Virus record (IMG/VR): IMGVR_UViG_3300037067_022550
DNA: 64,000 bases
Source: a virus
Strand: one strand, 5' to 3'
Made by a program: the position numbers and the translations under genes. This document shows positions 1,676 to 56,738 of the stretch, piece by piece (the stretch's first letter is position 1; each line of letters begins with the position of its first letter). Below the pieces are notes generated by a model. It was given only the letters and a program-made list of their open reading frames with translations, was not told the origin of the DNA and ran no database searches.

Positions 1676-2794
1676 TTATTCATTATATTTGAGAGAAAAA
1701 TTAGGATTAATAACTTTAAAACTTACATTGGGATCATCTTTTAAACGTACAACAATCCCTTCTCTCCAAACATCAGGATTCAAAACGCTTTTACCAATAC
1801 TCATGTTTACCAATTCTTTTATAATATCAGGAGTACTGCAATTACAAAGATTAAATGTCCAATTTTTATTAATAACCGGCACCATTTTAAAACCATTTTG
1901 GATGCAAAATATTTCCATTTCTTCAAGGGCATATTTTCTACCGTTATCAATTACATTAAAAACAAGGAAGTCTTGTTCGCCTAATTGATATTTATTCTTT
2001 TGAATTTTTGGTCCAACGCACTCACCTTGTACAACAATGCCAGCTTCTTCTAAATCAAGCAATTTGGCAGCGATATTATATTTTTCAGCCATTGCCCAAT
2101 AACTACTATTGTTAGGTTTACCCAAACGAACATTGCGAGAACAAACCCCAAATATTAGTCTATTAATCCCCCAATGCCTTTTAGTCCCAACAAAGTAAGT
2201 CCCGCTTTGACCATCTACCTTTTCAGTAACATACCATTCGCTTTCAGGACGACTTGTTAGTATTTTAGCACAAGTCTGAATACGTTCTTCATCTGTTTTT
2301 GCAATCCAACTTGGCCATCCTTTGTCTTTTCTGTTCAAATTAAAATAAATAAAACGATACAAAGAAAAATTCATAAGGAATTTATTGATTTTAGATTTAG
2401 AATGAGATTGTTCATCCAATTCCTTTTCTTCTTGCAATTGAGGATCATGCTTCTTAACCCCAAGGATTTCTGTAACATCAGTCCCTTCAACATTCTTGGG
2501 GTTTATAGGAAAATCAGAAGGCAAAATATCCAATGGAAAAACTATTCCCTGAGATATTTGCTTTTTCAATTTGATTGTGCGGATTCTGAACTTACGCTCT
2601 CTAAGAAATTCAAATTCTTGTTTTTCAGGCATAATACTGTCAACTTCACAGTAAACCACAAAATCACCAACCTTAAATTCCCCCTTTTTAGTAACACATT
2701 CCCATCCAAGAACTTGACAAACTTCAATTTTATCCCCCCCTTCAATGGGACGAATACCAATAACCTTTTGGATGCTTGCTAACTTCCTACTCAT
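1676..2794 (-). CDS. ATP-dependent RNA ligase, OB-fold N-terminal domain plus nucleotidyltransferase (Rnl5/DraRnl-like)
   Basis: Motif I TEKVDGQS (KxDG), motif III FLVFNVID, motif IV EGIVVR, motif V SFKVINPNF. N-terminal about 100 aa OB-like domain (MSRKLASIQKV...GDKIEV...GWECVTKKGEFKVGD). Confidence 0.65.
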   Translation of the reverse strand: MSRKLASIQKVIGIRPIEGGDKIEVCQVLGWECVTKKGEFKVGDFVVYCEVDSIMPEKQEFEFLRERKFRIRTIKLKKQISQGIVFPLDILPSDFPINPKNVEGTDVTEILGVKKHDPQLQEEKELDEQSHSKSKINKFLMNFSLYRFIYFNLNRKDKGWPSWIAKTDEERIQTCAKILTSRPESEWYVTEKVDGQSGTYFVGTKRHWGINRLIFGVCSRNVRLGKPNNSSYWAMAEKYNIAAKLLDLEEAGIVVQGECVGPKIQKNKYQLGEQDFLVFNVIDNGRKYALEEMEIFCIQNGFKMVPVINKNWTFNLCNCSTPDIIKELVNMSIGKSVLNPDVWREGIVVRLKDDPNVSFKVINPNFSLKYNE

Positions 2795-2809: not shown

Positions 2810-3553
2810 TTAAAATGTATATCCAACAGTTATCCCACCATATAACAAATTGTCCTTGAAATATATCTCATTAGCACTATCTCTAATTTGACTATCCCAA
2901 AGCCATGTATAACTTATCCGCAATGATGTATACCAATTGCTATTAATAATATATTTCAATACAGTATCAGCAGCACCGCTATTCAGTGCAGAGTTGTCAG
3001 ATCCAAAATAGTATTTATTAAATCTACTATTCCCATAACCCGTAGAAACAGATGGCGTCAAAATAAGGCTATCCAATAGTTGAATATCCCTATAAAGACT
3101 TGCAACAACATATGCCCCATTTACTTCATCAATATCATAATAAACACCACAAACAGGCGTTATAAAAAAATTAGGATATTTAATTTGCGTAAATACTTCT
3201 CGTGTTTCTTTTAGGGTACAATTAGGATATACATATTCAATTAGTCCAGCATTTATTTCCAAAACTTTTACTGGCAAAGTATATTGCACAGTAAAATCAA
3301 GCTCATTAAAATCCCTATCTTCAGTTATCCTATCAGTAAGATTATAGTTTCCCCAGGCATTTACTGAAAACCCATTTTTGGATATGTTCAGAAACGGTTG
3401 TGCAACAGGTTCATCATTAATCACTTGTCCACGAATAACACAAGCAGACATGAAAGAGACTTCGGTATTTGCTTGGACTTCTGTTGCTTGTAAGCTAAAA
3501 ATCCCCAAGAGAAAAATAAACATTAGAACTGTAAAACAAATTACTTTATTCAT
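2810..3553 (-). CDS. secreted outer-membrane beta-barrel-like protein
   Basis: N-terminal signal peptide (MNKVICFTVLMFIFLLGIFSLQA). Alternating hydrophobic pattern and C-terminal ...GYTF ending in Phe as in OMPs. Confidence 0.5.
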   Translation of the reverse strand: MNKVICFTVLMFIFLLGIFSLQATEVQANTEVSFMSACVIRGQVINDEPVAQPFLNISKNGFSVNAWGNYNLTDRITEDRDFNELDFTVQYTLPVKVLEINAGLIEYVYPNCTLKETREVFTQIKYPNFFITPVCGVYYDIDEVNGAYVVASLYRDIQLLDSLILTPSVSTGYGNSRFNKYYFGSDNSALNSGAADTVLKYIINSNWYTSLRISYTWLWDSQIRDSANEIYFKDNLLYGGITVGYTF

Positions 3554-3582
3554 TTTTTTAATTTTCTTTTTTATTGTTAATA

Positions 3583-4089
3583 TTACTTATCTTTTTCGAA
3601 AAAAGAAGGATCAACAGCTCTAGAAAAAGAATCAGCAACTTCTGGTACTTGTCCTTGAACTACTGGATTGGCCACTGCAGAGTTTTCTTCAATATTATCA
3701 GTTGATGGTTGTTCTGCAACAGGAGGAGTATACCATGTAATCCCTTCAAATTCTTTTTCAATTGCAGGATTATCAAAGACTGGTTTAACAACATCCTTTG
3801 AATCCACAGTTATTTGTGAATTTCTTTCCTTATAATTAGGAATGACCATGAAGTGAACAGTATTGGGACATCTAGCAATACATACAATGGCTATGGGCGT
3901 ACCATTAGCAGTTTTAGTCAAAACCCATTCAGGATTAATAGGCAAAGAATCCTTGCGTTCTTTCTTTTGAATTGGCGTAACTCCAACCATGGGTTTGTCA
4001 CCCACGTTTGTTGCAACAGTTGAAACAGGAACTACAGATGTCGCTACTTTAGGCTTATTTTTAGAACCTTTTGGACGTCCTCTGGGCAT
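3583..4089 (-). CDS. hypothetical protein with N-terminal RGRPKGSKNK AT-hook-like motif
   Basis: MPRGRPKGSKNKPKV N-terminus. Same motif recurs in the small ORF at 29657-29797. Confidence 0.5.
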   Translation of the reverse strand: MPRGRPKGSKNKPKVATSVVPVSTVATNVGDKPMVGVTPIQKKERKDSLPINPEWVLTKTANGTPIAIVCIARCPNTVHFMVIPNYKERNSQITVDSKDVVKPVFDNPAIEKEFEGITWYTPPVAEQPSTDNIEENSAVANPVVQGQVPEVADSFSRAVDPSFFEKDK

Positions 4090-4106
4090 AATAATTCTCC
4101 TTATTG

Positions 4107-4295
4107 TTAAACATTTTGAATCTCAAAACTACCTGGAGCATTACCTTCATCGTCACTTAGAAACCAAATAACCTTCTTACTTTTGTCAGGAAGAGATATT
4201 TGCAAACCAAAAAATCCTTCTCCTTCTTTATCTTGTACTGTACTTTCAATCTTACCGCCAACAATTTTATTTAATACATAGAAATTGTTTTTCAT
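4107..4295 (-). CDS. hypothetical protein
   Basis: Small minus-strand ORF in gene block. Confidence 0.4.
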   Translation of the reverse strand: MKNNFYVLNKIVGGKIESTVQDKEGEGFFGLQISLPDKSKKVIWFLSDDEGNAPGSFEIQNV

Positions 4296-5911: not shown

Positions 5912-5993
5912 TGGTGCTCCTGACAGGAATCGAACCTGCATTTTCATTTCCATTATGCACTATCTGTTTAGGAAACAGTGCCAATACAGGAGC
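5912..5993 (-). tRNA. tRNA-like gene, atypical fold (possibly tRNA-Leu(UAA)-like or degenerate)
   Basis: Reverse complement gives a perfect 7-bp acceptor stem (GCTCCTG/CAGGAGC), discriminator A, encoded CCA, and a canonical T arm GCAGG-TTCGATT-CCTGT. The 45-nt middle does not fold into a standard D arm. The best hairpin is TGTTT-CCTAAAC-AGATA extended by GCAC/GTGC, loop triplet TAA. Confidence 0.5.
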
Positions 5994-6618: not shown

Positions 6619-6695
6619 TGGCGTCCCCGGCAGGATTCGAACCTGCGACCCTGGGATTAGAAATCCCATGCTCTATCCAGCTGAGCTACGGGGAC
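6619..6695 (-). tRNA. tRNA-Arg (anticodon TCT), CCA encoded
   Basis: RC = GTCCCCG TA GCTC AGCTGGATA GAGC A TGGGA TTTCTAA TCCCA GGGTC GCAGG TTCGAAT CCTGC CGGGGAC G CCA. Perfect cloverleaf, anticodon loop TT-TCT-AA. Confidence 0.9.
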
Positions 6696-13349: not shown

Positions 13350-14543
13350 TTAACCATCATCCAGAGCCCTGTCCACCCTTCCATGTATATCACACTCAAT
13401 TTTATAACATTCAGGTAAAACATTTCCATCAGGACGAACCCTTTTATGAATGTTTTCCCAGAGTTTGTCATATTGCTTCTTAAATAAATTAATTAACAAA
13501 GACATGTTTTCTTTATGATTTTTTTGGCACTCAATAGCAAATTCCTTAATTCCTATCCCCCCAGTATAATCATTGGAACAATTGTTTAATATTTGCTCAT
13601 GTTCTATTTCAACCTGATCATATAAGATGTTATGCATACGGTTTATTACCCCACTCATCTTATCTGTAAATTTCCTGAACTCCTCCGGAACTTGTTGCAA
13701 ATACATTGGTGGTATCTTTTTATCTTTAATGTCCCAAGCTTCCCAAAATGCCAAAGGAGTTAAATTAGAAATTATCTTGTGTATACGAAGATATTCATCT
13801 CCCTTGACCTTTACCTTTAAACCAGTAGCAGGAAAAGTAACAACAAATCCCTCCTTTTGAAAAGGTAATGTCTTGCAGTAAACAGACAACTCATCCAAAG
13901 ATTGAAAAGAATTAGATGCCGCACATTGTACACCCAATTCTTTTGAACATTTATTTAAACCATCCGGACCAAGCTCGCTTCCATCTTTATTGTTAATTAC
14001 CCCAGTTAAAACTAACTCTTTCATCTCCCCATAATCAACTACTATTTTGTTTTCAGGATAAATAATCTCAAATAAATAAGTTAAATTGTTGTCTATTTTA
14101 AGATCATTATTTTGTCCTTTAATGCGTTCTTGTATCCAATCAGTAGCCCAAAGAGCTTGTTCAGATGTAAAAGATCCCTTAGTAGATATACGATATTTAC
14201 CACCATACTTAAATAAAATTCCCATAGAACCATCTAATTTATCTAATACATAAAATAAATTATCATTCAGTGTGGAAATAATATTGGTATATCCAGGTAA
14301 AGAATATAAGTCAATCAACTCATTTAAATTGAAAAACTTCTTCCAAGGACGAGCCACTAGTTCACCAGTAACTTTATTAAAAATAATACCGCGGGCATTC
14401 AGTGTAACATTATCCCAAGCTCTATCATATACACATTCTTGCTTATAATGAAATAATACAAGATCATTCCATTCCACAGCCTTAACATATCTATGAGAAT
14501 AAAATTCAGATATGAAAGGAAGATTGGAAAAATTTTGGTTCAT
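13350..14543 (-). CDS. rnlA: RNA ligase 1 (T4 RnlA-like)
   Basis: RGIIFNKV...KFFNLNE, motif I DKLDGSMG, STKGSFTSEQALWA and EGFVV match T4 Rnl1 blocks (RGIMF..KFFNLNE, KEDGSL, KSKGSIKSEQALMA) recalled from memory. Confidence 0.8.
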   Translation of the reverse strand: MNQNFSNLPFISEFYSHRYVKAVEWNDLVLFHYKQECVYDRAWDNVTLNARGIIFNKVTGELVARPWKKFFNLNELIDLYSLPGYTNIISTLNDNLFYVLDKLDGSMGILFKYGGKYRISTKGSFTSEQALWATDWIQERIKGQNNDLKIDNNLTYLFEIIYPENKIVVDYGEMKELVLTGVINNKDGSELGPDGLNKCSKELGVQCAASNSFQSLDELSVYCKTLPFQKEGFVVTFPATGLKVKVKGDEYLRIHKIISNLTPLAFWEAWDIKDKKIPPMYLQQVPEEFRKFTDKMSGVINRMHNILYDQVEIEHEQILNNCSNDYTGGIGIKEFAIECQKNHKENMSLLINLFKKQYDKLWENIHKRVRPDGNVLPECYKIECDIHGRVDRALDDG

Positions 14544-19857: not shown

Positions 19858-20003
19858 GCAAATATTAAAACTCTACATCATCTATATCATCTACATCTTA
19901 ATATTGGTTATTTAAACAATTCTATTATTTTTCAAGTATTTGTATAATAAAAGCAAATTATTATATTTAAGATACAAATAATCAAGGATTTAAGGGGTTA
20001 AAA

Positions 20004-20723
20004 ATGAGTTTAATTAGGTTAAATGATTATAAAATAAGTGGTAGGCAAGACAAATATCAAGGGAAAGACTTTGTTGGAAAGCTTGAAGTTTCCAGAGAAT
20101 TACCTGATATAACTAAGGATATTTTTAGAAAGGCTCATTTTGGAATATCAGAAAGATCTTATGATGATCAAGCCATAACCTGTTTAGATGGAGAGGACAG
20201 ATTTTTAGATATAGATGGCATTAATTATTTTAGTGGAGAAAACTTTAAGATAGAATGCAAGGATTTTTCCAGGTTTGGTGCTCATGAAATGATAGGTGTT
20301 CCTAGGCGTTACATACAAGAGAAGGCCATATTTTTTAATTATATCATTTTTATATTTAGATACAATATAAAGGTACTTCAATCTTTTGTTAATTTTCATA
20401 AGTATAGGAATATAGATGATGCCATTCAAGACTCTTTAGATAAGGGTTTTTTGTCTATGAAAGATGGGAAGATATCTTACACTCTTTGGGGTAACAGGCT
20501 TGACATTTTATTAAGGCCGGAGAATAGAATGATAGACAAAGAGGATCAAAAGAATTATGTTTGTTCTGATTTGGGTAGATATAAGGGAGAAAAGCAATAT
20601 CTTTTCAAGATTAATTCTATGCTTTTAATAGATGATTTAATAGAGCAAGAAAAGCATAAGGAACGTTGGCCTAATATTTGGGAAAAGTATTTAATTAATG
20701 ATTATAAACTACCCAACCACTAA
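20004..20723 (+). CDS. hypothetical protein
   Basis: 239-aa ORF. Stop codon lies inside repeat copy A. Confidence 0.55.
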   Translation: MSLIRLNDYKISGRQDKYQGKDFVGKLEVSRELPDITKDIFRKAHFGISERSYDDQAITCLDGEDRFLDIDGINYFSGENFKIECKDFSRFGAHEMIGVPRRYIQEKAIFFNYIIFIFRYNIKVLQSFVNFHKYRNIDDAIQDSLDKGFLSMKDGKISYTLWGNRLDILLRPENRMIDKEDQKNYVCSDLGRYKGEKQYLFKINSMLLIDDLIEQEKHKERWPNIWEKYLINDYKLPNH

Positions 20724-20760
20724 AGATGTCGTGGTTTTACGCTCCCGTAATAAAAAGGGA
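20709..20760. repeat. site-family copy A (intact): ctacccaacc-ACTAAAGATG-tcgtggttt + TTACG/CGTAA hairpin
   Basis: Left half identical over 20 nt to the flank of the tnpB 3' end (37595-37614). Right half matches the flank beyond the tnpB 5' end (38841-38873) and copy B. Confidence 0.7.
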
Positions 20761-21090
20761 TGTCATATTTATCCTTGTGCATCTTTTTTAGTCTTGTCCA
20801 ACGGTGTAAGTGTAACAAGTTCCTTGCTAATAAATTTTGGCATCCAGCACCTACCCTTGAACCAGTGCGTCTCTGTTTCCTTGCAAAAGCTGGAAAACTC
20901 AAACCACCAATTCATATGGCTACGAGCTTGGTTTTCCGTCAACCCGGAGTCGATCAGACTTGCAATTGTGTCACTGACCGCCTTATCACAACAGTACCGT
21001 TTTGTTTTATTTTTTCTCATGTATATGCTTCCGTGCTTGTAAATTTTAGTTACATATTATTTGGAAGTGGCTTACTATTAGGTTATCCCA
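20730..21090. other. GC-elevated island without credible ORF (candidate structured RNA or foreign DNA)
   Basis: About 42-45% GC vs about 28% surroundings. Only atypical overlapping ORFs on both strands. Confidence 0.3.
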
Positions 21091-21735
21091 TTAATTTGTG
21101 GTGCTTTCGGGCAAGAAGGTATTTCTTATGGAATTATCAGGCATATAATAGATATTATAATCACCTGCATCAAGATTAAAGATATTAGGATATTTTTTTC
21201 TTATTTTATTATACATACCGTTATCGCTATAATTAATGAGTTCTTTTATAGTGAATTGGCAGTTAATTTTATTTTGAAATTCAAGATATTTATCTATAAG
21301 GTCAAAAGTAGTATTTGCTGTAACCAAATGAGTTATCCTTATTTTTGTTAGGGCGGACAAATATTTCAGGTATTCCATATCTTCTTGGATTTTATCGCTT
21401 GAGAATACACATTTATTAATTTTATTCCAAAATGAATCTTTTTTCAATTTTTCTCTAGTGTGAACATCTACTATCATGTTTAAGAAATTAGTAATAGTAA
21501 GAAATTTTTCCCACCAAGTATTATAGGTATCGAATTTATATAAACTATCTCCTCCTCCGGAAACAGATACTTTACCCTTATTTTTATTATTAGACAGGAA
21601 CTGTGTCAATTTAACCCAATCTGTGGGCTGATTGACATTTTCTAGTTCGTGACCTTTCCAAATGCAGTACCAGCAATTTGCCCTGCATCCGAAATTAGTA
21701 ATTACTGAAATATTTGGGCTAGCTGTCCGCAGCAT
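21091..21735 (-). CDS. small radical SAM / 4Fe-4S activating-enzyme-like protein
   Basis: FGCRANCWYC (Cx3Cx2C) near N-terminus; 214 aa. Overlaps upstream rSAM gene by 34 nt. Confidence 0.6.
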   Translation of the reverse strand: MLRTASPNISVITNFGCRANCWYCIWKGHELENVNQPTDWVKLTQFLSNNKNKGKVSVSGGGDSLYKFDTYNTWWEKFLTITNFLNMIVDVHTREKLKKDSFWNKINKCVFSSDKIQEDMEYLKYLSALTKIRITHLVTANTTFDLIDKYLEFQNKINCQFTIKELINYSDNGMYNKIRKKYPNIFNLDAGDYNIYYMPDNSIRNTFLPESTTN

Positions 21736-22682
21736 AATCCTGCCTCCTCACATTTAGCAATGGCGTCTACTACTACTGGAATTCCTTCTTTTTTGAATTC
21801 CCTTTCCATAACCAACAAATCTTCATAGTTATTATAATTAGCAAAAGTTTCTAGATTATTGTCTTTACTATTTAAGGTTTGATTAAGGGGTATCAATTTA
21901 ACCGTGAATTTTTCTCCATTGAGCCCCATTTTTTTAAGTTTGTTAACGGAGACTTCTATGCCTTTCATAACTATAAAGTTAAGAGTAACAGTTCTGTTGG
22001 TTATTTTTGTTTTATTAATTTGTTTGATAATGTCTTCAATAAGCATAACTTCTGAATTTCCAAAAAGTCTTTGTCTTTCCATTTCGTCTGTTGAATTACA
22101 GCTTATTTGAAGGTGCAATCTGCCAGTATAAGTCTTTTCTTTTACTTCTATCACTTTATTCAGGACTTCTTCTGGAGTTATATTGCCCATAATTTTTTTA
22201 GGAAGAATGGTATTAAAGCAAGGAAGCCAATTAAAATGTTTACCAAGGTTGAAAGAAATCATAGGCAAATTGATCATAGCTCCAAGAACATTGTCTAAAT
22301 TATGAGATGGTTCTCCCATTCTTGCAAAGCCTATTTTTACTTTATCAGATTGTAAGACATATGGAGTATTGATGATTAGAAGTTCTATTTGTTCTTCTAT
22401 TTGTCTTTGGCTCAAATTTCCCTTAAATGGCAATTGAGCAACATCACAGAAAAGGCAATCATGAACACATCCTAATTGGGTAGAGACAGTTAGCAACCAT
22501 TTCTTTTCATAAGGGACAAGGTGTTTCCATATTACATGAGGATCTTGGGATTGTCTAACTTCTGCGTGCAGTTTGCCATCCACAGCTACGTCTCTCATTT
22601 CTGTACATTCTATCATATATCCGTCTACTTCTACTAAAAAGATTCTTCCGCTTGGCAAATAGCAAACATTTTTAATTTTCAT
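21702..22682 (-). CDS. RlmN/Cfr-family radical SAM RNA methyltransferase
   Basis: LLTVSTQLGCVHDCLFCDVAQ...NL...ARMGEPSHNLDNVLGAM parallels RlmN CVSSQVGCALECKFCSTAQ...MGMGEPLLNLNNVVPAM. Confidence 0.7.
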   Translation of the reverse strand: MKIKNVCYLPSGRIFLVEVDGYMIECTEMRDVAVDGKLHAEVRQSQDPHVIWKHLVPYEKKWLLTVSTQLGCVHDCLFCDVAQLPFKGNLSQRQIEEQIELLIINTPYVLQSDKVKIGFARMGEPSHNLDNVLGAMINLPMISFNLGKHFNWLPCFNTILPKKIMGNITPEEVLNKVIEVKEKTYTGRLHLQISCNSTDEMERQRLFGNSEVMLIEDIIKQINKTKITNRTVTLNFIVMKGIEVSVNKLKKMGLNGEKFTVKLIPLNQTLNSKDNNLETFANYNNYEDLLVMEREFKKEGIPVVVDAIAKCEEAGLCCGQLAQIFQ

Positions 22683-22770
22683 ATAGTATCTCCTTTTTTG
22701 AAATGGACTATAACATCTTTGATTAAATTGTCAAGTATTATTTATTTTTCTTATATTATACAATTTTTAC

Positions 22771-23235
22771 TTGCAAATACTGTATAATTTAGATATGTTT
22801 TCAGAAGAAAGGAATAATATGATAGACAAATTTGATTTAGATTACAGATTTTTGAGCAATTTTTGGTTGTCTCCTGTGGTATTTGAAGGAGAAGTTTATC
22901 CTTCTTCTGAACATGCATTCCAAGCTGCTAAAAGTTTAGATAAATCTGTAAGAGAACAAATCAAGGGATGTAGTACCCCAGGTAAAGCTAAAAGAATGGG
23001 GGCAAGGGTTGAGTTGCGTTCTGATTGGGAAACTATTAAAGATGATGTTATGCTTGACGTATTAAGAGATAAGTTTAAGGACAATGATTTAAGAGAAAGA
23101 CTAATTGCAACTGGAACTAAAGAGCTAATTGAAGGCAATACTTGGGGAGACAAGTATTGGGGGATGGTTGCTGGCGAAGGAAAAAATATGTTAGGAAAGC
23201 TATTAATGCAAGTTAGAAGTGAAATTAACTCTTAA
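22771..23235 (+). CDS. NADAR (YbiA/DUF1768) domain protein
   Basis: YRFLSNFW...SSEHAFQAAK...GNTWGDKYWG hallmark residues. Confidence 0.75.
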   Translation: MQILYNLDMFSEERNNMIDKFDLDYRFLSNFWLSPVVFEGEVYPSSEHAFQAAKSLDKSVREQIKGCSTPGKAKRMGARVELRSDWETIKDDVMLDVLRDKFKDNDLRERLIATGTKELIEGNTWGDKYWGMVAGEGKNMLGKLLMQVRSEINS

Positions 23236-24185: not shown

Positions 24186-25124
24186 TTAGGAGACTTCAGG
24201 AATAGTTAATCTTTTTATATTAATTTCTTCCATTTTATTGTCATATATTGTGTTAATGGCTGCTGTTTTATTATAAATATCAGAAAGATATTTTTTAATT
24301 ATTTCATCTGTATATCCATTATCAAACACATCTTTAGAGTCTGCAGTTTCAAAAGAAGATTTGGTTGTTGTTAATGTTTTTTCAAAAAGTACTGGACCAA
24401 CTCCTTCTTTCCATTGCCATAGAGATACTTGTCCTTCATCATCAATTTTTGTAAAAGTATCTATTTGTCTTGCCCAAGTACCTGAATTATAGTGATAGTT
24501 ACCTATATTTCCTGGAGTGTGGGTATGACCGTAAATAACTACATCTATATTATTGTTTTGGCGGTATTTTTCTATAGCCTGTATATTATCACATAGTCTT
24601 GAATTAGATCCTATAGATTTAAGTTCGTCTTCTACTGACAAGTTACCTATAAAAGGTCCATTGGACAGATCTTCCAACATTCCTGCAATGATTGTGGCTA
24701 TTTCTCCTATACCTGGATTGTTTTTATTACAATATGGATCAAACTCGTGACCGTGTAAGAAAGCAAATTTGCGTCCTCCTATTGTTTGCACAAATGGTTT
24801 GCTCATTCTTTTAAAAAATGGGTGAGGCATTTCTATAATATTGTTATCTATATAAACAAAGTTCATTAAGGTATTATCGTGATTTCCCAAAACATAAGTT
24901 GACTGCATAGCGTCGAGTTTATCTAATAGACCATGATACTGATTAATTGAAGAACTGAAATTAACTTGCCACCAATCAAAAAGGTCTCCTAGTATATATA
25001 ATTTAGCTTGTTGTTGTTCTACCCATTTAAGGAAGTCATAGAAGCGTATTTCTCTACCTTTTACATTAAAATTATCACGTGTTCCGCGATCTGCAGCATG
25101 TACATCACTTATGCAATAAATCAT
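24186..25124 (-). CDS. calcineurin-like metallophosphoesterase
   Basis: DVHA...GDLFD...GNHD...GHTHTPG metallophosphatase motifs. Confidence 0.75.
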   Translation of the reverse strand: MIYCISDVHAADRGTRDNFNVKGREIRFYDFLKWVEQQQAKLYILGDLFDWWQVNFSSSINQYHGLLDKLDAMQSTYVLGNHDNTLMNFVYIDNNIIEMPHPFFKRMSKPFVQTIGGRKFAFLHGHEFDPYCNKNNPGIGEIATIIAGMLEDLSNGPFIGNLSVEDELKSIGSNSRLCDNIQAIEKYRQNNNIDVVIYGHTHTPGNIGNYHYNSGTWARQIDTFTKIDDEGQVSLWQWKEGVGPVLFEKTLTTTKSSFETADSKDVFDNGYTDEIIKKYLSDIYNKTAAINTIYDNKMEEINIKRLTIPEVS

Positions 25125-35936: not shown

Positions 35937-36612
35937 AATTACACAAAAAAATAATTCTAATGATTGGATAAAGCAAGGATTTGTTGTTGCCAAAACTATA
36001 GAAGCAATAAATGAAATTTTCAAGCCATTTTTTAGTGGAACCGGCGTATCAAATATTCAAAGTTTTAGAATAATTGTAGATAAAATAAAACATATTCCAT
36101 TAGAAGAATTACAAAACAAAACAGTTCTTGGGGTATTAAAAGAATATTATTTAGAGGTAATTAAAAAATACACTTTAATATATCTAGATTATTTATTTTA
36201 TGACGAAATTTATCCTGAATCTCTCAAAAAAGATCCCTATATTTTAAAAGAAATTAAAAAAGTTGTTTTAAAATCTTATAATGAATATGCTTATAAGAGT
36301 TATGAACTCAACAATAAGATATTTAAAATGCTTAAACGTTTTAAAAATGATGATTTTATTATGAGTATTTTGTATAAAAAAATGTATAATAAAATGGGGC
36401 AAGAAAATAAAGATTTGATGAAAATAATTGAAGAAATAAAAATAGAAAAAGAAAGATCTAAAAAAATACACAGAATATTAGAGTTCTATTCTCTTACTCA
36501 CGAAAACCCTTCGGCCTATGAGATGGATATAATAACTAAAGATTTAGGGCAAAAGAATAATGGAGAAATAAATAACTACATAGATAAATATGTAGTTAAG
36601 TGGGGAAAATAA
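35923..36612 (+). CDS. paralog-family protein 3
   Basis: MKIIKITQ N-terminus, RFKNDDFIMSILYKK; 14-nt overlap with gene 2. Confidence 0.6.
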   Translation: MKIIKITQKNNSNDWIKQGFVVAKTIEAINEIFKPFFSGTGVSNIQSFRIIVDKIKHIPLEELQNKTVLGVLKEYYLEVIKKYTLIYLDYLFYDEIYPESLKKDPYILKEIKKVVLKSYNEYAYKSYELNNKIFKMLKRFKNDDFIMSILYKKMYNKMGQENKDLMKIIEEIKIEKERSKKIHRILEFYSLTHENPSAYEMDIITKDLGQKNNGEINNYIDKYVVKWGK

Positions 36613-36657
36613 AATATCCAATGACTAAAGATGTTGTGGTTTCCTTAACTACGGAAA
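36612..36657. repeat. site-family copy B: aaatatccaatg-ACTAAAGATG-ttgtggtttcc + TTTCC/GGAAA hairpin
   Basis: Right half aligns with copy D (ACTAAAGATGTYGKRGTTTCCTT..CTACGGA). Left half differs from A/C. Confidence 0.65.
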
Positions 36658-36867
36658 ATGAAAATTAAAAAAATAGCAGGAAAAATTATTAATAAAGATG
36701 ATGCCATTATGTATATTTTTAATGGTTGTAATGGTGAAGTTTTATTAAAGCTAATACCAGCAGAATATGAAGTCTTATTAAATAAATATAATGAAATAAT
36801 GATGGAAAGAAATAAACCCAAAGACTTGCCCGGACAATTAACTTTTTTTGATGATATTAAAACTTAA
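36658..36867 (+). CDS. hypothetical protein
   Basis: 69-aa ORF starting immediately after copy B. Confidence 0.45.
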   Translation: MKIKKIAGKIINKDDAIMYIFNGCNGEVLLKLIPAEYEVLLNKYNEIMMERNKPKDLPGQLTFFDDIKT

Positions 36868-37579: not shown

Positions 37580-37760
37580 TTAAAAACCTGTCAACTACCC
37601 AACCACTAAAGATGGTTAGGCTTGCTCAACCAACGAACTGGGAGCAATAGGTGGATTGACTGCCGCCCGACTTGGATGGCCTGTAGCGTCCAAGTAGTTT
37701 TTAAGTATGTTGCGAGAAGCATTAAGATCAGCATGGATGCAAAGTCCACAGTGACCACAA
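37580..37760 (-). ncRNA. putative TnpB omega-RNA/reRNA region (3' end of tnpB through the right end)
   Basis: Inference from IS200/IS605 biology. GC-richer 3' segment of tnpB with hairpin CTTGGA/TCCAAG at 37671-37694. Confidence 0.3.
37595..37614. repeat. site-family half C: ctacccaacc-ACTAAAGATG abutting the tnpB stop codon
   Basis: 20/20 identity to 20709-20728. Confidence 0.7.
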
Positions 37761-38850
37761 ACATAGACAGATTGAGACTTGCGGTTGGACTTGAGAACTA
37801 CTCCGCACTTGCTACACTTTTGGGAAGTGTAACGAGCTGGAACATACTCAACCCCTATTCCCTTTGCTTTGGCTTTGTAGGAAAGAAACTGTTCAAACTG
37901 GAAGAAGTTCCATTTGTTCAAGTCCTTCCTTTGAGCCTTTCTCAATCTGGAGTTTCTGATTCCTGTGAGTTTCTCCAGTATGACCGTGCTTCCTGCTTCA
38001 AGCGAATTGACTATCTTCTTGGCAATGCAGTGGTTAACATCTCGTCTAAACCGTCTCTCTTTAGAACTTACTTTTCTAAAGTGTCTTTTGCCGGAATGTT
38101 TTTTCGCCTGAAGACTACTTCTGAGTTTTTCATACCTTTTGCTAACCTGCTTAATCCTCCTTCCGTTAAAGAACTTGTTTTCGGACGTTACTGCAAGATT
38201 GTTGATTCCCCTGTCTATTCCGACGTACTTGCTGGAATGAGGAATATCGTTTATTTCTTTCTCAAACACAACATGCAAAAAAACCTTGCCTTTCTTGACA
38301 AACAAATCAGCCGAAGCGTGTTTCCAGTCCAAATACCTTTCAAAGTATTTCGGAATAATAAGGTTGAACTTCTTTCTTCCTTCCGTAGTTTTGATGGAGA
38401 CGGTTCTGGACTCAAGGAAGAGAGTGTAAGAGTTGACATCATAACGAATAGATGTTTGCTTGGATTGCGGAAGAGAACCTTTCTTGCCTTTGTTCGTAAT
38501 TTCTTTAACAGATTTCAGGGTTTCAGTAGCCTTCATTCTAGCAGAAATAGCAAGTTGGGATGGTAGAGTAGTTCGGCAAGTGTTGTATGTTTTGTGATGG
38601 AGAGAGACACCGTTGGTATCTTTAGACTCAAATCCTACTTTACAGATGTAGTTGAAAGCATCCGTATAAGCTTTAATGGTTGGAAGAAACTCCTTGTCGG
38701 AGCAGTCAACAACCAGTTTTGCTGTTTGAGTCAGTTTCATATATTTAATTCATTCTGCAATTATTTTTCATTCCCTTCTTTTATTTTCAACTATTTTTCA
38801 ACAATGCAAACAGAAAGTGGAACGGCAATTCATCCCCGACACTAAAGATG
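37605..38850 (-). mobile_element. TnpB-only IS200/IS605-family (IS1341-like) element inserted into a site-family copy; ACTAAAGATG present at both junctions
   Basis: tnpB ORF plus about 100 nt of 5' leader, bounded by direct 10-mers at 37605-37614 and 38841-38850. No tnpA. Confidence 0.6.
37616..38740 (-). CDS. tnpB: TnpB (OrfB) RNA-guided nuclease, IS200/IS605 family
   Basis: RuvC-I GIDRGINN, RuvC-II ...ILEKLTGI, zinc finger CSKCG...CGHCG, RuvC-III IHADLNASRNI. Confidence 0.9.
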   Translation of the reverse strand: MKLTQTAKLVVDCSDKEFLPTIKAYTDAFNYICKVGFESKDTNGVSLHHKTYNTCRTTLPSQLAISARMKATETLKSVKEITNKGKKGSLPQSKQTSIRYDVNSYTLFLESRTVSIKTTEGRKKFNLIIPKYFERYLDWKHASADLFVKKGKVFLHVVFEKEINDIPHSSKYVGIDRGINNLAVTSENKFFNGRRIKQVSKRYEKLRSSLQAKKHSGKRHFRKVSSKERRFRRDVNHCIAKKIVNSLEAGSTVILEKLTGIRNSRLRKAQRKDLNKWNFFQFEQFLSYKAKAKGIGVEYVPARYTSQKCSKCGVVLKSNRKSQSVYVCGHCGLCIHADLNASRNILKNYLDATGHPSRAAVNPPIAPSSLVEQA

Positions 38851-38873
38851 TCGGAGTTTCCTTGCCTACGGAT
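38841..38873. repeat. site-family half D: ACTAAAGATG-tcggagtttccttgcctacgga
   Basis: Aligns with right halves of copies A and B. Confidence 0.65.
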
Positions 38874-38894
38874 ATATGAAATGCTAATGATTGC

Positions 38895-55475: not shown

Positions 55476-56738
55476 ATGCAAGTAATTCAATCAAATAAAC
55501 CAAACAAAGTAATCTACTCTTGGTGCCCAAATATTGATCAAAATGCTCTTGACCAAGCCAAGCTACTTGTTGAACAACTCTTTGTTTTTAGGCACATGTC
55601 TCTTATGCCAGATACACATAAGGGGACAGTAATGCCAATTGGAGGGGTATTAGCCACTAAAGATGTTATTCTTCCTTTTTGCGTCGGTTCAGATGGAGGC
55701 TGTGGAATGTGTGCTGTAAAAACTTCTTTGAAGATTGAAGACTTCAGAGAAGGACAGAAGGAAGAACTTTTGCATAGTATGGAAAGAAGCGTTCCTGTAG
55801 GTTTTCAGCATAATGACGAAAAAAGAATGGGGGAAATAAGGCAAAAATATATTCAAAAAATTGAGTATTTGCTTAAAAAAAACGAAGCAGTGTTAAGAGC
55901 TTCAACACGAATATTTCAAAACGTGCCAAAAACTATTGAAGAACAGGTTGGAACCCTTGGTGGAGGCAACCATTTCTGTGAGATACAATATGATCAAGAT
56001 GAAAACATTTGGATAATGATTCACTCAGGATCTAGAAATATAGGAACTAAAATTTGCGATACTTTCAATGATATCGCAATTGATTTAAATAAGAAATATT
56101 ATTCTCAAGTTCCAGAATCAATCCCATTTCTTCCTACCAACACAATGGAAGCAAAAGAATATCTTGCTTATATGAATTTTGCGTTAGACTTTGCTTTTCT
56201 TAACAGGCAAATTATGATGGATTATATTAAAAAGGATATTTCTTTTTCATTCAAACATATGCAAGTTGATTTTGAAAAAATGATTAATATTCACCACAAT
56301 TATGCTTCTCTTGAAAACCATTTCGGAGAAAACGTATGGATTCATCGTAAGGGGGCAACACTAGCCACTAAAGGAACCATTGGGATCATACCTGGGGCAG
56401 CTGATAAAAATTCAGCTTCATATATAGTTCGGGGGAAGGGTAATCCTGACTCTTATAATTCTTGTTCTCATGGTGCTGGCAGAGTAATGGGTAGAAAAGC
56501 GTTTAACCAAATATATAATACTCCAGAAAAAATGAGGGAAATTGTATCTTCCCTAGACGGAATTACTCATAGCAAGTTTAAGAAAGAACAATCTTACAAG
56601 AAAAATAAAGAAACGGGATTGCTTGATGTTTCTGAAGCTGGTGCTGCATATAAAAATGTTTTCTCAGTTATGAAGAACCAGGAAGATTTAGTTGAAATTG
56701 TTACAACCCTTAAAACCTATATTAATATGAAGGGTTAA
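55476..56738 (+). CDS. rtcB: RtcB RNA ligase (3'-phosphate/5'-OH)
   Basis: MPDTHKGTVMPIGGVLATKDVILPFCVGSDGGCGM and downstream His-rich blocks typical of RtcB. Confidence 0.9.
   Translation: MQVIQSNKPNKVIYSWCPNIDQNALDQAKLLVEQLFVFRHMSLMPDTHKGTVMPIGGVLATKDVILPFCVGSDGGCGMCAVKTSLKIEDFREGQKEELLHSMERSVPVGFQHNDEKRMGEIRQKYIQKIEYLLKKNEAVLRASTRIFQNVPKTIEEQVGTLGGGNHFCEIQYDQDENIWIMIHSGSRNIGTKICDTFNDIAIDLNKKYYSQVPESIPFLPTNTMEAKEYLAYMNFALDFAFLNRQIMMDYIKKDISFSFKHMQVDFEKMINIHHNYASLENHFGENVWIHRKGATLATKGTIGIIPGAADKNSASYIVRGKGNPDSYNSCSHGAGRVMGRKAFNQIYNTPEKMREIVSSLDGITHSKFKKEQSYKKNKETGLLDVSEAGAAYKNVFSVMKNQEDLVEIVTTLKTYINMKG

Follow-up and report, generated by a model that had tools for sequence, protein, structure and literature searches.

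The GC-rich island of the window (the whole 64,000-nucleotide stretch of DNA analyzed here, IMG/VR virus record IMGVR_UViG_3300037067_022550) is very probably a minus-strand gene for a small protein, with a composition foreign to the AT-rich phage that carries it. The predicted product is 83 amino acids long, and the rise in GC content coincides with this open reading frame and reflects its codon composition, with a GC content at third codon positions (GC3) of 0.48, rather than RNA structure. A preliminary description of the same DNA had raised the possibility that the island is a novel RNA or the orphaned scaffold of a guide RNA. The correction matters as a conventional small gene leaves no RNA candidate at this locus and enlarges by one member a phage protein family that is very small and unannotated. 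The features of the window on which the argument draws are collected in Table 1.

Table 1. Positions of the 83-aa gene, its neighbors and the TnpB-related features in the window
Feature	Position	Strand	Basis or content
83-aa protein-coding gene (MRKNKTKRYCCDKAVSDTIASLIDSGLTENQARSHMNWWFEFSSFCKETETHWFKGRCWMPKFISKELVTLTPLDKTKKDAQG)	20769..21020	-	homology, codon-position pattern, open frame; accounts for the GC island
Gap from the stop of the radical-SAM 214-aa gene to the start of the 83-aa gene	21021..21090	-	70 nt, read from sequence
Two overlapping radical-SAM genes, upstream of and co-directional with the 83-aa gene	21091..22682	-	Pfam, PHROG, TIGR00048
Site A, solo copy of the TnpB-element end, ~56 nt	20704..20759	-	left part of LE + loop CATCTTTAGTG + 3' arm of RE hairpin
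Site B, second gene-less copy	about 36612-36668		left part of LE, loop CATCTTTAGTG, RE 3' arm
tnpB-only IS200/IS605-type element	37590..38885	-	tnpB 37616-38740; omega-RNA scaffold/RE 37590-37692; LE about 38741-38885

The rise in GC content that the preliminary description placed at 20730-21090 is real, with 40.2% GC over that interval compared with a window mean of 30.2% (sd 4.3%, 300-bp windows), and the value reaches 42.3% at 20740-21040. Measured in 200-bp windows the GC fraction is 0.40 at 20700-20899, 0.46 at 20800-20999 and 0.38 at 20900-21099, with 0.26-0.32 on both sides. Only 0.44% of 300-bp windows have a GC content as high as that of 20740-21040, and essentially all of these lie at the island, at the tnpB gene or near position 55500. 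Divided by part, the 83-aa ORF has 42.1% GC, the 45-nt gap at 20724-20768 has 40% and the 70-nt gap on the other side of the ORF has 33%. The four overlapping ORFs listed for the island in the preliminary description are present where it placed them, and the minus-strand ORF that it singled out as the tidier candidate is the true feature of the island; the others are shadows opened by the high GC. Both antisense (plus-strand) frames are stop-free by chance in the window copy and are open only in this GC-rich copy, which accounts for the pile of overlapping ORFs seen there. Across the four loci that carry the gene the sense frame alone is open in every one, with 2-5 stops in the antisense frames of the three homologous loci. 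The gene begins with an ATG at 21020 and ends with a TAA at 20769-20771, and a closed ATG-initiated ORF of at least 83 aa arises in only 1.6% of shuffles of the island.

Searched exhaustively with HMMER, 1.84 billion cluster representatives contain one credible match to the 83-aa protein, the 78-aa protein P0002, with 54% identity over query residues 1-76 (E=5.4e-19). The other HMMER matches, P0003 and P0004, are long tandem-repeat proteins and are regarded as spurious. A second homologue, P0005, is 82% identical to P0002, and a further variant (L017) is the sole addition from a scan of the JGI metagenomes. The family comprises three 90%-identity clusters among 5.8 billion. A word-indexed protein search with the ORF returned nothing besides the ORF itself, a profile search with the 3-sequence alignment of the family added no more members, and neither the protein nor the alignment, used as a search pattern, matched anything in IMG/VR or the GTDB genomes. 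The INPHARED phages likewise contain no useful match, searched by blastn with 20000-22700 and by tblastn with the 83-aa ORF. An identical ORF is present on a second assembly, L003. The P0002/P0005 homologues are located on more than 20 short AT-rich phage-like metagenome contigs (at most 4.4 kb); P0002 is among the called genes of 20 contigs, where it always occupies a co-directional array of small genes separated by gaps of at most 18 nt, and in every array it is abutted by a gene for a 144-aa protein. One contig carrying a 78-aa homologue, L004, has six tRNA genes at 3542-4156 (Pro, His, Ile, Arg, Pro, Glu), an array that explains the GC-rich stretch of its own.

The substitution pattern between the window ORF and its homologues is that of a protein-coding gene. 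Nucleotide identity at codon positions 1, 2 and 3 is 0.61, 0.79 and 0.32, respectively, with pN of 0.31 and pS of 0.92, the latter saturated, and dN/dS among the homologues is 0.14-0.17 (L004 compared with L014/L017). Family members retain the start methionine and a near-identical length, and with the L004 protein as tblastn query the ORF is found in the window at 7e-25. The 83-aa protein and its homologues make up a tiny family of small, phage-like proteins, which is under purifying selection and is named in no library. The earlier statement that the island holds no credible ORF is overturned by the significant homologue and by this substitution pattern. That description had named a confident protein homology with good codon adaptation as evidence against its own reading; the homology is found in P0002, whereas the codon adaptation is absent.

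The composition of the gene differs from that of the phage, with GC fractions at positions 1, 2 and 3 of 0.36/0.43/0.48 compared with 0.39/0.31/0.22 for the resident genes. Of the 84 codons, 40 end in G or C, compared with a phage GC3 of 0.219 (p=1.7e-7), and among the other real genes only tnpB has a similar GC3. Scored on phage codon usage, the 83-aa gene gives -0.01 and tnpB -0.02, the lowest resident 84-codon window being at 0.11. We read the unadapted codon usage of the 83-aa gene as a mark of foreign origin, because tnpB, a bona fide imported gene, scores essentially the same. The GC of the homologues is 33% and their GC3 is 0.26-0.30, values that do not depart from their own backgrounds. 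Searches of the window with L004 (tblastn/tblastx) give a match confined to 20787-21020 with zero neighbors in common, and L001 and L002, two IMG/VR contigs that keep the adjacent radical-SAM pair at 66% amino acid identity, do not have the 83-aa gene. A higher-GC donor of the gene was sought in GTDB genomes, IMG/VR and the JGI metagenomes, and none was found.

The suggestion in the preliminary description that GC-rich islands of this kind may be recent acquisitions fits the composition, and the 83-aa gene, judged from composition alone, was probably acquired recently. Its origin would be a single-gene cassette of a relative with higher GC, an accessory gene of the "moron" type; we infer the single-gene cassette because the homology begins and ends at the ORF, the neighbors differ and the codons have not drifted to phage usage. 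A bolder proposal, which we consider improbable, is that the solo TnpB-end remnants at sites A and B serve as portable recombination anchors between co-infecting phages, that homologous exchange anchored at an IS end of this kind brought in the 83-aa gene, and that its protein possibly represents a new class of small nucleic acid-binding accessory factor. If this were true, IS-end scars would be a vehicle that shuffles single-gene cassettes in phages.

The two radical-SAM genes directly upstream are the immediate neighbors of the gene in the window. The product of the gene at 21702-22682 (minus strand), 326 aa long, is distantly RlmN/Cfr-like, has ...CCGQLAQ as a C-terminal motif and matches the RlmN model TIGR00048 at E=1.3e-18, which is below the cutoff; that of the gene at 21091-21735 (minus strand) is 214 aa long and contains a CxxxCxxC motif. 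The pair has weak Pfam Radical_SAM matches and PHROG matches to phrog_24834 and phrog_17662. On L002 the pair is bracketed by 167-nt direct repeats (198-364 and 1948-2114; 94.6% identical), an arrangement that suggests a cassette duplication or a recombination module. Each of these repeats holds a 45-aa ORF with 7 Cys (MAVYYCIKKDCFFHDKFKTTGCSSCMVKECLASDCEDFFEPKEGG), and a counterpart of this Cys-rich ORF was sought in the window and is absent there.

The arrangement on the minus strand makes co-transcription of the 83-aa gene with the radical-SAM genes plausible, since the gap between them is 70 nt long and has no terminator-like site; no promoter-like site was seen in the gap either. The gene would then be transcribed as the last of the radical-SAM unit and translated from a weak Shine-Dalgarno-like GGAAG at 21028-21032, which is placed 7 nt ahead of the ATG. 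Both the unadapted codons and the weak ribosome-binding site count against the predicted expression of the gene.

The sequence beside the island is a copy of end sequence of the element that contains tnpB. The tnpB product has Pfam matches to Cas12f1-like_TNB and OrfB_IS605 and an NCBIfam guided_TnpB match of 171.6 bits (cutoff 100), and no TnpA was found among the subset of window ORFs scanned. The 3' region of the element was aligned with those of five related IMG/VR TnpB elements, which defines the RE boundary and from which a covariance model of the omega-RNA scaffold of this TnpB family, R1, was built; the consensus structure of the RE alignment has compensatory changes in 11 of 36 pairs. 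The right end is formed by a terminal hairpin, CCTAACCA-TCTTTAG-TGGTTGGG, the stem of which shows compensatory changes among relatives, and then continues as ...TAGTTGAC to position 37590. Because the right end stops there and the TnpB guide lies outside the transposon boundary (PMC10055086), the true guide would start at 37589 and read AGGTTTTTAATTATTTTTAT (37589 to 37570, minus strand). This candidate guide has no second match in the window.

Comparison of the window with itself by blastn shows an exact identity of 22 nt between 20707-20728 and 37593-37614. These 22 nt constitute the loop and the 3' arm of the RE terminal hairpin and are placed inside the transposon and its omega-RNA scaffold, not in the flanking guide. 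The "predicted TnpB target site" of the preliminary description is accordingly a misreading: the 22-nt identity is real, but the sequence lies inside the RE hairpin and the two copies are not a guide/target pair; this revised reading matters for any finding on TnpB homing in the window. The motif ACTAAAGATGTYGKRGTTT occurs in three exact copies (20719, 36624 and 38841), and when up to 3 mismatches are allowed there are 5 matches compared with 0.13 expected by chance. Alignment of the LE and RE of the resident element with sites A and B shows that the resident LE and RE hairpins are each self-complementary, whereas sites A and B have a single hybrid hairpin. The simplest reading of the alignment, resting on the self-complementarity of the two resident hairpins, is that A and B would be solo-end remnants (left, for example, where LE and RE recombined through the 11-nt loop repeat) or miniature derivatives and not empty target sites.

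Site A starts 9 nt past the stop of the 83-aa gene and is not part of it. On the other side the convergent 239-aa gene at 20004-20723 (plus strand) takes its stop and its six final codons (…YKLPNH) from the site A repeat, and the transposon-end remnant has therefore reshaped the C terminus of the 239-aa protein. The idea of a mobile-element remnant at this locus survives to the extent that a remnant abuts the island, at about 20704-20759, and does not extend to the GC-rich part. A 10-mer within the ORF, GCAAGGAAAC (20875-20884, minus strand), matches the start of the TnpB left end; the match is rejected as chance because it encodes conserved K-E-T residues and because AAGGAAACA is also found in the homologue L004.

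The high GC of the island within an AT-rich genome, and its position against a sequence with 22-nt identity to that lying just 3' of the stop codon of tnpB, are what could commend a structured non-coding RNA, either an orphan omega-RNA-like scaffold or a regulatory RNA, but this reading is largely refuted and we give it almost no credence. The Rfam/Infernal scan and the folding with covariation that the preliminary description proposed as checks return no RNA signal. Rfam 15 at gathering thresholds reports tRNAs alone in the whole window, and at E<=10 only chance-level matches over 20500-21300; the minimum free energy of the island is no better than that of dinucleotide shuffles on either strand (z of +0.37 for plus and -0.97 for minus). 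We attribute to chance a single CRISPR-DR61 match at 21043-21081, which at 22.3 bits (E=0.44) falls short of the gathering score of 38. At the real scaffold (37590-37692, minus strand) the R1 model reaches 96.6 bits (E=2e-28), its sole match in the window. When 20000-22000 is searched without filters, its best score touching the island is 5.0 bits (E 0.17), the same as unrelated matches in that 2 kb, and in this noise-level match only the site A hairpin aligns. The 22-nt identity, the only match of 20600-21200 to the window by blastn, lies outside the GC-rich core, and the island contains neither tnpB nor a fragment of it, with Pfam empty for every island ORF. The RNAalifold consensus for the four homologues is weak, at -12.9 kcal/mol over 255 columns compared with -40.6 over 127 columns for the real omega scaffold, in a covariation comparison of low power (4 sequences, 2 of them nearly identical), and the concentration of divergence at third codon positions fits constraint on a protein and not on an RNA. 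The proposal of a structured or regulatory RNA is left unsupported.

Two further explanations accept the ORF and differ on what it does. The ORF could be a recent non-functional or decaying passenger that is intact only for lack of time and has no role in the phage, as its unadapted codons and weak ribosome-binding site would allow and as would the Trp, Cys or Phe residues that the window copy has at several positions conserved among the homologues; the signal of purifying selection, moreover, sums the whole history of the family and not the recent past. Against this, synonymous divergence is saturated and yet the frame runs its full length, keeps the start of its homologues and is almost exactly as long as theirs, and the same ORF is found unaltered on the second assembly, so that we hold a passenger to be improbable. 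Less probable still, and in our view very unlikely, is that the product is a RiPP precursor peptide, with its modifying enzymes encoded by the two radical-SAM genes that lie immediately upstream on this strand. A small Cys- and Trp-containing ORF located co-directionally 70 nt downstream of two radical-SAM genes has the appearance of such a precursor, and in L001 and L002 the pair is flanked by the 45-aa ORF with 7 Cys. The association is not conserved, however, which makes the role unlikely: the homologue loci, on contigs of at most 4.4 kb, have no radical-SAM gene, and the relatives that keep the pair are without the 83-aa gene. The larger enzyme is of the RlmN/Cfr-like RNA methyltransferase type with no SPASM/twitch or RRE domain detected, and the conservation of the 83-aa protein extends over nearly its whole length and does not follow a leader/core pattern. 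Of its four cysteines only Cys10 is invariant; Cys11 recurs in one homologue, and Cys46 and Cys58 occur in the window copy alone.

With a protein-coding gene as the preferred reading of the island, the nature of the product can be approached from the protein itself. Searches of Pfam, PHROGs, NCBIfam, PADLOC and the PDB sequences for a function gave no match. The AlphaFold2 model, calculated from 3 sequences, has a mean pLDDT of 56.8 with residues 48-83 below 50, and its moderately confident part is limited to residues 8-45, composed of a short strand and two helices at 11-24 and 29-43 (helix pLDDT 74-83). Foldseek finds nothing in the PDB at E<=0.001 with this model. The N-terminal tail is Lys-rich, and the pattern IAxLIxxGLTExQAR (A-x3-G-L-T-x2-Q-A) extends across the two helices. 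From this pattern, recognized by eye, a small helix-turn-helix-like nucleic acid-binding regulator or accessory protein is suggested tentatively, as a best guess that we hold only weakly and consider less likely than not.

Elsewhere in the window, a tRNA-like sequence with a long variable-region insert is located at 5915-5993 (minus strand); it scores 32.1 bits against an Rfam gathering score of 29 and is not called by ARAGORN, and a normal tRNA-Arg(TCT) is placed near it at 6619-6695. Genes at 1676-2794 (minus), 13350-14543 (minus), 22771-23235 (plus) and 24186-25124 (minus) comprise two RNA ligase-type genes, a NADAR-domain protein and a metallophosphoesterase, the ligases being a PHA02142 OB-fold + RNA_ligase protein and a T4 Rnl1-like protein. 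It is possible that these four genes form an RNA-repair toolkit of the phage.

Compared with the omega-RNA (reRNA) scaffold of TnpB elements in the IS200/IS605 family (PMC10055086), the island is alike only in its position beside tnpB 3'-end sequence and in its GC content. The real scaffold of this window lies inside the tnpB 3' end, and the island matches it in neither sequence nor structure and is protein-coding. PATE-like elements, which have no coding genes, are mentioned in the same paper (PMC10055086), and sites A and B resemble such minimal IS200/IS605 derivatives or solo ends in being gene-less LE/RE copies of the resident element. They differ in having no separate LE and RE hairpins and in being, at ~56 nt, too short for an omega-RNA (R1 5 bits). 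Site A is termed a solo-end remnant and not a PATE because it consists of a single ~56-nt hybrid hairpin and is not bracketed by LE and RE hairpins.

The likeness of the 83-aa protein to small helix-turn-helix DNA-binding proteins consists of the two consecutive helices, the IAxLIxxGLTExQAR pattern and the basic N-terminal tail; the resemblance is one seen by eye, and unlike established families of this kind the protein has no profile match (Pfam, PHROG, NCBIfam) and no Foldseek match at E<=0.001. A parallel in genome organization is provided by phage morons, a concept of Hendrix and colleagues, and by ORFan early genes. The 83-aa gene is like these in its short length, its deviant composition, the limitation of homology to the ORF and the different neighbors in each lineage. 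Classic morons have their own promoter and terminator, whereas neither is detected at the 83-aa gene, which looks instead to have been appended to the radical-SAM unit.
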